Below, piece by piece: positions 7,596 to 9,287 of a stretch of 64,000 nt of DNA. Source of the stretch: Candidatus Saccharimonadales bacterium. Its GTDB lineage: Bacteria > Patescibacteriota > Saccharimonadia > Saccharimonadales > JAUPVS01. A program made the translations under genes and the position numbers. Location of the stretch: contig JBDSDR010000002.1 in assembly GCA_039920385.1 (NCBI GenBank), positions 10,561-74,560 on the forward strand, written 5' to 3'. The first letter of the stretch is position 1. Every line of letters starts with the position of its first letter. The notes beneath the pieces were generated by a model that worked only from the letters and a program-made list of their open reading frames with translations, had not been told where the DNA came from and made no database searches.

Positions 7596-7720
7596 AGATT
7601 ATATCTTAACAGATTAGAAACAGATTGTAAACTGCTTATTAATGGAGCCGTCGTATCCCTAAAGGGATACTGCCTGCTTCCTCGAAAGACTCTTGCCAGC
7701 AAGCTGCCAGAGTCTTTCTG

Positions 7721-7767
7721 TGGAGCCGTCGTCGGGATTTGAACCCGAGACCCCCGCCTTACCATGG
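7721..7767. repeat. 47-nt perfect copy of the 3' half of tRNA-Thr(GGU) (att-like direct repeat)
   Basis: tggagccgtcgtcgggatttgaacccgagacccccgccttaccatgg is identical to 9213-9259. Identity extends 7 nt further (ctttctN) with one mismatch. A 12-nt copy (tggagccgtcgt) lies at 7643-7654. Confidence 0.9.
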
Positions 7768-7893
7768 ATATGGTGGGGATGGAGAAGTAAAATAATCATT
7801 ATTCCAGCTTGGGAGTTAGTCCCCGGAACACGATTAAATTATTAATGAACTACCAACATCCTACCATAAGCTAGTTGGAAAGTCAATTGATAC

Positions 7894-8298
7894 CTAGGGC
7901 TTTGTCGGTACAACACTCTCTTGTTCGTTAGCAACTACCTCGCTATCGAGGGCAATCTCACGTATCTTTTCTACGCTCTTCCGTGCTCGTATTTTAGTGA
8001 ATATGCTAGAGGAGTCCTTGTTTGTACGGTGCCAGATATATAGCAGAATAATCCCAGTTACGGCTGACACGACGGTTATAATGACGAATACGGTGAATGT
8101 GTTGCCATTAACTGGGGTGAGCAGGAGGTTTGCCAGGAATGCAACGAAAGTTGACAGTAGCACCAGCGCAATATTTAGGTAGTTTGAACTCGGCGAACCT
8201 CTTTCAATTACTTCGAGTTCATACTCATTCACCTCATAAACAGTAATTGAATCAATCTTTGCCCGATTTACTGTTATTTGGTCTTTTTCGTTTGACAT
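7894..8298 (-). CDS. hypothetical two-TM membrane protein (134 aa), islet cargo
   Basis: Two adjacent hydrophobic helices (NIALVLLSTFVAFLANLLL, FTVFVIITVVSAVTGIILLYIW) flanked by ~45-aa soluble tails. Starts 1 nt after the upstream ORF stop. Confidence 0.6.
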   Translation of the reverse strand: MSNEKDQITVNRAKIDSITVYEVNEYELEVIERGSPSSNYLNIALVLLSTFVAFLANLLLTPVNGNTFTVFVIITVVSAVTGIILLYIWHRTNKDSSSIFTKIRARKSVEKIREIALDSEVVANEQESVVPTKP

Positions 8299-8299
8299 A

Positions 8300-8638
8300 T
8301 CAAAGGTACTTCTTTAACCAGTCCCCAGTACCTCTGGTGTTTATCCATGCTCCTACTGCACCCGACCGTATTACGAATATGCGATCTCCGGAGGCCTTAA
8401 CTGCTATTATGCCTTCGCGAATCTGTACTGCGGTCTTATCGGTAACAACCACCCAAGAAGTCTCAGTAATTTGTGAATACGTACCGTATGTTGATTTGAT
8501 GTGATTTTCTAAATCTTTTGCTTTAGTGGCGGATTCATAAATCACGATATAGGTCTGCATGCTATAGATTATAGCGCGCTCATGGTGTTTCTTGCTAAAC
8601 CATCTCATTTTATTTGTTTGCTCCCTTAGAGTAATCAC
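8300..8638 (-). CDS. hypothetical small soluble protein (86-112 aa), islet cargo
   Basis: The maximal ORF starts at GTG 8638. Alternative starts are ATG 8608 and ATG 8560; the latter sits 7 nt after a TATAAT (8573-8568) and would be leaderless. The sequence alternates strand-like and helix-like stretches. No family recognised. Confidence 0.55.
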   Translation of the reverse strand: MITLREQTNKMRWFSKKHHERAIIYSMQTYIVIYESATKAKDLENHIKSTYGTYSQITETSWVVVTDKTAVQIREGIIAVKASGDRIFVIRSGAVGAWINTRGTGDWLKKYL

Positions 8639-8665
8639 CGTTGCTCATAAACTAACTCCGATTTC

Positions 8666-8694
8666 TTGACACCCAAAGAAGGCGTTGCTATAAT
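8666..8694 (+). promoter_or_regulatory. perfect sigma70 consensus promoter (TTGACA-N17-TATAAT)
   Basis: TTGACA 8666-8671, exact 17-nt spacer, TATAAT 8689-8694. Predicted +1 near 8701. Confidence 0.6.
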
Positions 8695-8700
8695 ATAGAT

Positions 8701-8745
8701 AACGCCTCGCAAGGTATGGACTCTCCCAGGAGTCCTTTTTTATTG
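8701..8745 (+). ncRNA. candidate ~45-nt small RNA; 5' 13 nt antisense to the anticodon arm of the adjacent tRNA-like RNA
   Basis: Predicted transcript AACGCCUCGCAAGGUAUGGACUCUCCCAGGAGUCCUUUUUU. GGACUC/GAGUCC hairpin plus U6 gives an intrinsic terminator. The 14-nt DNA repeat taacgcctcgcaag occurs at 8700-8713 and 8786-8799. Confidence 0.4.
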
Positions 8746-8754
8746 TTAAAGAGC

Positions 8755-8828
8755 TGGTGGAGATAACGGGTGCTGCCCCCGTATCTAACGCCTCGCAAGC
8801 GTGTGTTCTTCTGTTGAACTATATCCCC
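8755..8828 (-). tRNA. tRNA-like cloverleaf (74 nt, CCA encoded): Ala-type acceptor (G3:U70, A73), anticodon GCG, non-canonical D and T loops
   Basis: Manual fold: GGGGAUA UA GUUC AACAGAA GAAC A CACGC UUGCGAG GCGUU AGAU ACGGG GGCAGCA CCCGU UAUCUCC A CCA. All stems have standard length. The D-loop lacks GG and the T-loop lacks UUC. Confidence 0.5.
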
Positions 8829-8846
8829 ACAATTTTTATTTCGACT

Positions 8847-8900
8847 AAATAAAAAGAGCGCCGAAACCTAAAATGATTATTCATCTTGGTTCCGACGCTC
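8847..8900 (-). terminator. strong rho-independent terminator inside the islet
   Basis: Minus strand GAGCGUCGGAACC-(19 nt)-GGUUUCGGCGCUC forms a 13 bp stem. Both mismatches seen on the plus strand become G:U pairs only on the minus strand. Followed by UUUUUAUUU. Confidence 0.6.
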
Positions 8901-8998
8901 ATAGGTATTGAGTCTGTCGATTGTTACATCCTATTATCCCTGGCATGCGGGTCGTTTAACTTCCTGACCTCGCCCGACGTAACCTTTATATTATACCA
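8847..8998 (-). ncRNA. candidate ~135-nt small RNA unit (extended -10 promoter to terminator)
   Basis: Extended -10 TGGTATAAT on the minus strand (8998-8990), predicted +1 ~8984, terminator at 8900-8847. Only 15-27-aa ORFs without convincing SD lie inside. Confidence 0.3.
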
Positions 8999-9038
8999 TG
9001 AGTAGCCAGGCGTGCGTTTGCTTATAGCTCTCAGCCCC

Positions 9039-9066
9039 AATAAAGAAGCCCCGCTTGTTGCGGGGC
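9039..9066 (-). terminator. rho-independent terminator
   Basis: Minus strand GCCCCGC-AACAA-GCGGGGC followed by UUCUUUAUU. Confidence 0.55.
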
Positions 9067-9104
9067 TGAAAAACCGAGACCCGCAACGTCTGTTACGTGC
9101 CGGG

Positions 9105-9134
9105 AATTAAAAACTCCACCTTATAGGGGTGGAG
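9105..9134 (-). terminator. rho-independent terminator downstream of tRNA-Thr(GGU)
   Basis: Minus strand CUCCACC-CCUAUAA-GGUGGAG followed by UUUUUAAUU. Confidence 0.6.
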
Positions 9135-9212
9135 GACGTCGCACAAGTTAGAATGTCGGCCTTGGCAGCTAGTTGCTGTCAATGACTGATGTTATAATTA
9201 GATTACTTTCTC

Positions 9213-9287
9213 TGGAGCCGTCGTCGGGATTTGAACCCGAGACCCCCGCCTTACCATGGCGATGCTCTACCACTGAGCTACGACGGC
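9213..9287 (-). tRNA. tRNA-Thr (anticodon GGU), CCA encoded
   Basis: Manual cloverleaf: GCCGUCG UA GCUC AGUGGUA GAGC A UCGCC AUGGUAA GGCGG GGGUC UCGGG UUCAAAU CCCGA CGACGGC U CCA. Confidence 0.9.

Follow-up and report, generated by a model that had tools for sequence, protein, structure and literature searches.

We examined a stretch of 64,000 nt from a Candidatus Saccharimonadales bacterium (contig JBDSDR010000002.1; the whole stretch is called the window), in which a block at positions 7768-9212, the islet, stands between a tRNA-Thr(GGU) gene and a displaced copy of the 3' half of that gene. Our comparisons suggest that the islet is the remnant of a temperate Saccharibacteria phage whose integrase has been lost and whose two attachment (att) sites have both been kept, and we put the probability of this reading at about 0.75. 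The evidence for this reading includes an integrase-bearing island at the same site in another contig (L040; L numbers are our handles for the loci compared), an attP in free phage genomes, and homology between the distal arm of the islet and the corresponding arm of the phage.

As judged by its sequence, the window comes from a genome of the Saccharibacteria (Candidate Phyla Radiation, CPR; Patescibacteria), and the best relatives of its PurF-like protein (encoded at 9330-10766; 56-67% identity) are found in metagenome-assembled genomes (MAGs) of Saccharimonadia. The nearest genome in the collections stands at 67% PurF identity, and the comparisons are thus made across genera or species, not strains. 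Read along the minus strand, the order of the locus is purF, tRNA-Thr, islet, displaced tRNA half, a 78-nt unit, a spacer and rpmG:

9330-10766: purF, upstream of tRNA-Thr in the minus-strand reading.
9213-9287, minus strand: intact tRNA-Thr(GGU) gene (ARAGORN; Rfam, 68.3 bits), whose 3' 47 nt (9213-9259) are the attL core.
9100-9212, minus strand: tRNA-proximal (P') arm, which starts GAGAAAG and holds the terminator at 9134-9114.
7768-7893, minus strand: distal (P) arm of 126 nt, with the outward promoter TTGACT-17-TAGGAT (7886-7858).
7721-7767, minus strand: attR core, the displaced 3' 47 nt of tRNA-Thr(GGU).
7643-7720, minus strand: two-hairpin unit of 78 nt, linked to tRNA-Thr and outside the islet.
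7596-7642: spacer of 47 nt, from a 12-nt copy of the tRNA end to rpmG.
7392-7595, minus strand: rpmG, the ancestral neighbour of tRNA-Thr.

The repeat at 7721-7767 is identical to 9213-9259 at all 47 positions, and it runs from the last 2 nt of the 5' strand of the anticodon stem through the anticodon loop to the CCA. Similarity extends over 59 nt at 95% (7714-7772 against 9206-9264), with six of the seven nucleotides past the CCA matching because the trailer start NAGAAAG is common after many of these tRNA copies. Both the perfect duplication of the tRNA 3' half and the seven further nucleotides with one mismatch had been described in the original prediction, and both stand, with the tRNA on the minus strand. 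The tRNA itself is identical at 75/75 positions to that of L028, L032, L034, L041-L043 and L046. An assembly duplication had been named as one case that would overturn the proposal. The Logan contig L018, assembled with k=31 from run SRR26386594, matches 9230-10541 at 100% identity and terminates exactly 30 nt inside the repeat; at this point a de Bruijn graph would branch if the 47-mer had two left contexts, and the repeat is therefore no artefact of assembly.

In relatives the tRNA and rpmG stand close together. We found rpmG 46-285 nt after tRNA-Thr(GGU) in 14 loci from 13 genomes of Saccharibacteria relatives; L001, L002, L005, L019 and L020 show this proximity, as do many of 25 metagenome loci retrieved with the 32-nt T-arm-to-CCA segment as query. 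In L046, where the tRNA is identical, a spacer of 52 nt leads to rpmG with no block between them, and the downstream order (kinase, YgjP-like, HisKA, secE, nusG) is that of the window. The nearest relative by RpmG (L045, 59/67) has the tRNA, two tandem units and rpmG, without the islet. The rpmG leader motif AATCTGTTAA is also kept in relatives. The block is therefore an insertion, and the earlier view that it separates two neighbours, together with the suggestion to look for an empty site in related genomes, is borne out. As an anchor for these comparisons, purF-tRNA synteny proved valid for part of the clade only; the conserved feature is the linkage of tRNA-Thr to rpmG.

An integrase-bearing counterpart occupies the same site in L040, a 2.4-kb metagenome contig. 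It encodes a tyrosine integrase of 276 amino acids (aa; PF00589, E-value 3.6e-33). Behind the integrase gene come an arm of 108 nt, which has an outward promoter, and a displaced tRNA-Thr half whose start lies in the anticodon stem; the rpmG leader and rpmG directly adjoin this half. This integrase family has more than 415 relatives, many of them on contigs of 37-45 kb, and the family contigs that we read are phage genomes with ERF, HNH, methylase and CHAP or M23 lysin genes and no complete tRNA gene. In L048 the integrase is 83% identical to that of L040; an arm with the promoter TTGACG-17-TACTAT comes next, then CCATGGTAAGG…GGCTCCA, a 47-nt 3' half of tRNA-Thr(GGU) with the same start (CCATGG) and end as the window repeat, and beyond it a terminator and further phage genes. 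This tRNA half beside the integrase gene (int) is an attP. Similar tRNA-Thr halves lie beside int in L050/L051 (45-54 nt) and in the IMG/VR contig L054 (45-51 nt), and the attP cores of the family members are 45-54-nt halves that share their start and end with the 47-mer of the window. No integrase lies beside the att site of the islet; one is present at the equivalent position in L040, L048, L050 and L054. Our literature search found no description of a tRNA-Thr-integrating phage family in Saccharibacteria. On the 93-kb contig Ga0187809_10000046 (L026 and L029), a full tRNA-Thr(GGU) is likewise accompanied by a displaced half, of 45 nt, that starts at the anticodon loop. In the L026/L029 island a TTGACGGCA..TGACGGCTACG motif is repeated in both arms and may mark arm-type integrase sites.

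The P arm of the islet (7893→7768) matches that of L048 at 32 of 50 positions without gaps, a score that none of 1000 shuffles reached (shuffle maximum 29), and that of L040 at 29 of 50 (reached by 3 of 1000 shuffles). The alignment to L048 begins 8 nt past the upstream stop codon in both sequences and includes the outward promoter. A weak continuation runs about 35 nt upstream of the stop codon of the islet's open reading frame 1 (ORF1), into the last codons of ORF1 and of int, and is suggestive only of the 3' end of ORF1 being a remnant of the 3' end of int. The more distant P arms of L050 and L054 showed no significant similarity to the window. With the 5' part of the tRNA as the B arm, the unit and rpmG spacer as B' (as in L045, L032 and L046) and the phage arm as P, three of the four att arms are accounted for. 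In the reconstructed attP, the window sequences bordering the 47-mer would read …CCACCATAT before it and GAGAAAGTAATC… after it.

The empty sites, L040, the phage attP and the P-arm homology all agree with the original prediction that a tyrosine recombinase integrated an element, regenerated the tRNA and displaced its 3' half, and the proposed decayed island becomes, more specifically, a probable prophage remnant.

A sigma-70-type promoter directed outward also lies between int and the attP core in L040 (about 1310-1340) and L048 (about 10015-10045), and in L054 between int (which ends at 6831) and the tRNA-Thr half (which starts at 6962). This promoter is common to the phage family and is retained in the islet (7858-7886, minus strand), where its direction after integration is toward rpmG.

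On this basis we propose the following history. The parent would have been a phage of the family with the 276-aa tyrosine integrase, genomes of about 42 kb and an attP corresponding to tRNA-Thr(GGU) from the anticodon loop to the CCA. Recombination within the tRNA segment would have inserted it into the tRNA-Thr gene, regenerating the tRNA with a 3' half and terminator supplied by the phage (attL) and displacing the original 3' half (attR) along with a structured unit that was probably already there and rpmG. Subsequent deletion would then have removed the integrase and nearly all of the phage, leaving both 47-nt cores, the whole P arm, outward promoter included, and a self-expressed cargo of about 1.3 kb. 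Such an islet would not be self-mobile; because both att sites are intact, its excision by the integrase of a related phage (and by any excision factor that this phage may use) is conceivable, as for a cis-mobilisable element (CIME).

The interior of the islet holds the following features:

About 8830-9212: terminator-rich non-coding region.
9040-9090, minus strand: terminator hairpin 9067-9047 with an overlapping alternative hairpin 9057-9087 (folding z-score -4.1).
8843-8985, minus strand: structured non-coding unit of ~140 nt, whose 3' end is a hairpin of ~20 bp with a U-run (folding z-score -5.1).
8755-8828, minus strand: tRNA-like gene with an alanine-type acceptor stem and anticodon GCG (Rfam; cloverleaf as minimum free energy structure).
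8666-8746, plus strand: perfect sigma-70 promoter (8666-8694), RNA of ~45 nt and terminator 8718-8735.
8300-8560, minus strand: ORF2, 86 aa, ferredoxin fold of the Cas2/GhoS type, phrog_1090.
7894-8298, minus strand: ORF1, 134 aa, membrane protein with two transmembrane helices.

The original prediction had two overlapping ORFs of lower GC content between the repeats. There are two ORFs, and the GC content of the islet is only slightly down (0.39-0.45 against about 0.46-0.50), but the genes are adjacent and not overlapping, with a junction TGA-T-ATG that places ORF1 1 nt downstream of ORF2. The longest ORF of the islet has 134 aa, and integrase, transposase and replication domains are absent from all of its ORFs, as had been claimed; nor is there a recombinase among the window's ten unassigned ORFs of at least 150 aa. 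ORF2 most likely starts at M27 (position 8560). The protein is identical to an NCBI protein of a 'Candidatus Saccharimonadales' MAG, matches phrog_1090 with an E-value of 1e-7 and belongs to a broad family whose members are stand-alone proteins some 90 aa long, among which Pfam matches Cas2 weakly in 10 of 52 relatives, GhoS in 1 of 52, and nothing in the window ORF2 itself. Its AlphaFold model (mean predicted local distance difference test, pLDDT, 93.6) is matched by Foldseek to BPSL1038 (template modelling score, TM, 0.80), GhoS (TM 0.49) and several Cas2 structures. ORF1 has two transmembrane helices, a soluble N-terminal domain and a charged tail. A Pfam similarity to LPG_synthase_TM (E-value 2e-4) lies under the cut-off and was taken as non-specific transmembrane similarity. 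ORF2 homologues on three other contigs are all followed immediately by an ORF1 homologue (56-89% identical), and none of these three modules is associated with tRNA-Thr halves. An ORF1 profile found no match in the viral contigs, the only match of the islet DNA to annotated phages and plasmids is the tRNA portion, and PADLOC gave no match.

By analogy, ORF2 and ORF1 could form an addiction or toxin-antitoxin-like pair. As in the type V system GhoS/GhoT of Escherichia coli, a gene for a small Cas2-fold protein is followed by one for a small membrane protein with two transmembrane helices. There, the toxin mRNA is cleaved by the antitoxin, and it is the membrane that the toxin damages. Unlike in that system, the window ORF2 lacks sequence-level membership of GhoS (no Pfam match), the best structural match of its model is BPSL1038 (TM 0.80, against 0.49 for GhoS), and ORF1 with its 134 aa is unrelated to the 57-aa GhoT.

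Several observations weigh against a phage origin of the islet. It has no recognisable phage structural or regulatory gene, the weak hint of an int 3' end being the only possible trace of one, and ORF1, ORF2 and the tRNA-like gene were not found in the family phages that we read. One of the other ORF2/ORF1 modules lies on a contig with an IS1595 transposase and a weak Replic_Relax match. The P' arm has no detectable homologue among the available phage P' arms. Of the check for a tyrosine integrase with a matching attP, which had been proposed beforehand, one half succeeded, in that a phage family with an attP of the same span exists; an attP identical to the 47-mer was not found, the exact sequence having no match in the viral contigs, and so the cognate phage was not found either. 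The perfect identity of the attR copy, which is not under selection, is slightly surprising in an old remnant. Finally, with the closest relative in the collections at the PurF identity given above, there is no strain-level polymorphism for presence or absence of the islet.

As an alternative, the islet could be a maintained, satellite-like miniature element that evolved from a phage att region. Selection would then preserve its P arm and both att sites, and helper phages of the L040/L048 family would supply the integrase for its regular excision, packaging or transfer. In favour of this, neither 47-nt core has a single change even though the attR copy is dispensable for tRNA function, the P arm is retained at full length, the interior is dense with intact promoters, terminators and genes and has no visible pseudogenes, and the ORF2/ORF1 module is present in other mobile contexts. 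However, no second copy of the islet, that is the same cargo between tRNA-Thr halves, was present in any collection searched, and the other three modules stand apart from such halves. We regard this alternative as unlikely, and prefer the decayed prophage. That the tRNA half was duplicated without site-specific recombination, by local duplication, by homologous recombination with a foreign tRNA-Thr fragment or as an assembly artefact, would suit the lack of an integrase in the 64-kb window and the identity that extends a few nucleotides past the tRNA end, but it is highly improbable given a repeat border that falls in the anticodon loop like those of the phage attP cores and of attR in L040 and L029, a P arm homologous to a phage arm, two repeat contexts supported by an independent assembly, and the common trailer start that accounts for the match past the CCA.

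The RNA features named in the original prediction, namely a tRNA-like gene, a perfect consensus promoter and at least four intrinsic terminators, are all present. The tRNA-like gene scores 45.3 bits against the Rfam tRNA model (gathering score 29; 8758-8828, minus strand), although ARAGORN does not call it, and the predicted RNA folds into a cloverleaf with all four stems intact as its minimum free energy structure. Its acceptor stem is of the tRNA-Ala type (G3:U70, A73, CCA), and among 53 distinct viral tRNA sequences with exactly the same stem 52 are tRNA-Ala. The anticodon is GCG, an arginine anticodon, and the elbow (D loop AACAGAA, T loop GGCAGCA) is without the canonical G18G19 and T54-Psi55-C56. 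An Rfam scan of the phage contigs L048 and L050 found no tRNA-like genes. Among the IMG/VR loci (L056-L135 and beyond), one sequence (two copies) of the tRNAs with the GGGGAUA/UAUCUCC stem carries a CUA anticodon. This viral tRNA, a putative amber suppressor with alanine identity, is the closest match to the islet gene (50/74).

The promoter at 8666-8694 (plus strand) matches the consensus at 12 of 12 positions and drives a terminated RNA of ~45 nt. Over its first 14 nt (8700-8713) this small RNA is an exact complement of the tRNA-like RNA, 86 nt away, at the anticodon loop and the 3' strand of the stem (8786-8799). Three terminators were found by scanning, and a long hairpin with a U-run at about 8845-8885 is the fourth; the terminator at 9134-9114 now ends the tRNA-Thr transcript. 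At 9047-9087 (minus strand) we also noted two mutually exclusive hairpins, GTTGCGGG/CCCCGCAAC and AGCCCCGC/GCGGGGCT with a U-run, which share CCCCGC in an attenuator-like arrangement.

Beyond the attR core, a third copy of the tRNA end, the 12-nt TGGAGCCGTCGT at 7643-7654, closes a unit of a different kind. In the minus-strand reading the unit (7643-7720) consists of CAGAAAG, hairpin 1 (7684-7718, with a perfect 10-bp stem), the motif TTTCGAGGAAGCA (7675-7687) and hairpin 2, which ends in the 12-nt copy; a mini hairpin, ATCCC-TAAA-GGGAT, lies at 7655-7668. The 12-nt copy, the mini hairpin and the 10-bp hairpin had been seen before, the last at nearly the same position, and the 12-nt copy had been taken as a relic that suggested a further integration event. 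In L005 and L046 the native spacer between tRNA and rpmG is homologous to what follows the 12-nt copy in the window, which places the ancestral tRNA end at the 12-mer; the 66 nt that separate the 12-mer from attR are non-random. A homologous unit stands behind tRNA-Thr(UGU) in L005 (5193-5270) and ends in a copy of the last 13 nt of that tRNA; the matching empty site is seen in the window, in the trailer of its tRNA-Thr(UGU). Strain-level polymorphism was sought for the L005 insertion and none was found, since it is present in a second sample too. Tandem units occur in L045 (two, 207-358) and in L032 (two, one of them divergent, in the last about 150 nt in tRNA-sense orientation).

Together these units form a family of 73-79 nt in four genomes, at tRNA-Thr(GGU) or tRNA-Thr(UGU), with reciprocal empty sites. 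At its end, each unit repeats the final 11-13 nt of its host tRNA, paired to an imperfect inverted copy within the unit, and all share a fold of two hairpins. In hairpin 1, compensatory changes were found at 9 of 13 pairs, with 91% of cells paired, and the covariation score of 0.52 compares with 0.20 in shuffles (reached by 0 of 500) and at most 0.17 in slid controls. In hairpin 2 the copied tRNA end (…CGACGGCUCC) pairs with a conserved motif, GGA(A)GCC…, which co-varies with the host tRNA. An nhmmer profile of the unit found no additional members in 396 kb of loci and gave no score to the tRNA-proximal end of the islet despite its GAGAAAG start. The strict pattern TCCANAGAAAN{20,40}TTCGAGGAAGCN{15,35}GCTCCA found nothing in viral or metagenome contigs; real variants, which start GAGGAAA or are truncated at contig ends, escape so strict a pattern. 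The unit in the window lies outside the islet and, as the order in L045 suggests, probably pre-dates the phage integration.

The 12-nt copy and hairpins could also be the scar of an earlier integrase-mediated integration, left by tandem accretion and near-total deletion. The 12-mer does mark the ancestral tRNA end with about 66 nt inserted (from the spacer homology to L005 and L046), and the tandem arrays in L045 and L032 are what repeated insertion at a regenerated site would produce. Random deletion scars, however, would not give the same 73-79-nt architecture in four genomes and at two tRNA-Thr genes, the covariation in hairpin 1 and the pairing of the duplicated tRNA end to a motif that co-varies with the host tRNA speak against them, and the repeat of 12-13 nt differs from the 45-54 nt used by the phage family. 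A scar is thus improbable, and the relic becomes a conserved unit that recurs at tRNA-Thr genes of other genomes. We also considered a miniature inverted-repeat transposable element (MITE) or other derivative of an insertion sequence (IS), but the ends (CAGAAAG.../...GGGAT) are not inverted repeats and the 12-13-nt repeat belongs to an internal hairpin. For origins of the IS200/IS605, IS110, integron attC or CTX/IMEX (integrative mobile elements exploiting Xer) type, which were considered as well, no defining feature could be established.

From its conserved fold, the 78-nt unit is a structured feature that fits no known family and is distinct from a decayed 47-nt att site. We know of no obvious precedent for a structured repeat in which the tRNA-Thr 3' end is both copied and paired and which accumulates in arrays. 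The palindrome-associated transposable elements (PATEs) of IS200/IS605, integron attC and IMEX at dif offer analogies, in that they are short, protein-less, have conserved hairpins and insert at a specific conserved sequence, regenerating the target so that tandem arrays build, with the enzyme encoded elsewhere. Unlike these, the units are without terminal inverted repeats, we identified no transposase or recombinase associated with them, and their target, the final 11-13 nt of tRNA-Thr, recurs within the unit's own hairpin; none of the three families is, to our knowledge, known to target tRNA-Thr ends in this way. A joint proposal, to which we give rather less than an even chance, is that these are undescribed protein-less two-hairpin units that attach to tRNA-Thr 3' ends in Saccharibacteria and, separately, that the tRNA-like RNA of the islet could be a non-translational or recoding tRNA controlled by the antisense small RNA. 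If so, the units would be either a new kind of mini mobile element targeting tRNA ends or a new class of tRNA-trailer RNA.

An insert that may be an analogous phenomenon in another CPR lineage was seen in L011 (3566-3780, Parcubacteria), where tRNA-Ser(CGA) is followed by a GC-rich and hairpin-rich sequence and then, 113 nt past the tRNA, by the start of a 17-nt repeat of its 3' end.

In L004 (7517-8101) a 194-aa ORF, by eye LAGLIDADG homing endonuclease-like, lies between an inverted tRNA-Thr(GGU) and rpmG, and small membrane-protein genes occupy the tRNA-Thr/rpmG spacer in L002, L019 and L020. This spacer is therefore a recurrent insertion hot spot. Elsewhere in the window, at 33367-38272, four ORFs without a Pfam match (240, 223, 189 and 187 aa) are interspersed with tuf and fusA in an otherwise conserved str/S10 region. 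An exact protein look-up returned no record for the RpmG or ORF2 of the window.

As a prophage remnant, the islet would offer a clean case, traceable throughout, of the decay of a tRNA-integrating prophage in a CPR genome, down to a tiny block that has no integrase, and the candidate addiction module could explain why the fragment persists in a streamlined genome. The phage family can be defined by its integrase, its attP and its tRNA-Thr(GGU) attB, and matching of att sites could link uncultivated phages of ~42 kb to their Saccharibacteria hosts. The side observations, that is the structured unit and the tRNA-Ala-like RNA, may matter more than the islet and are the most worth following up. 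For the latter, with its alanine acceptor identity and arginine anticodon, charging and function are directly testable.

Tyrosine integrases reportedly target the 3' part of tRNA genes with a crossover in the anticodon-loop region, for example in P4- and P22-type elements and many mycobacteriophages. A tRNA-integrated prophage is a well-known kind of element, of which the islet would be a further case. As in temperate phages and islands of this kind, the attP of the phage family corresponds to the tRNA from the anticodon loop to the 3' end, the tRNA is regenerated and its displaced 3' half remains as a direct repeat, and the intact family members (L040, L048 and L054) have the integrase gene beside attP. 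The islet differs in being without an integrase and essentially all phage genes, and in having a CPR bacterium as host. CIMEs are defined as elements without integration and transfer genes that retain attL and attR (PMC5704250), and the islet is in effect a CIME in this sense. It likewise has no integrase, has intact attL and attR in a tRNA 3' end and shares its site with a second repeat-bounded feature, the two standing in tandem. CIMEs have, however, been described as decayed integrative and conjugative elements (ICEs) or integrative and mobilisable elements (IMEs) of Firmicutes that are mobilised by conjugative elements, whereas the parent of the islet would be a phage and its mobilisation is only potential.

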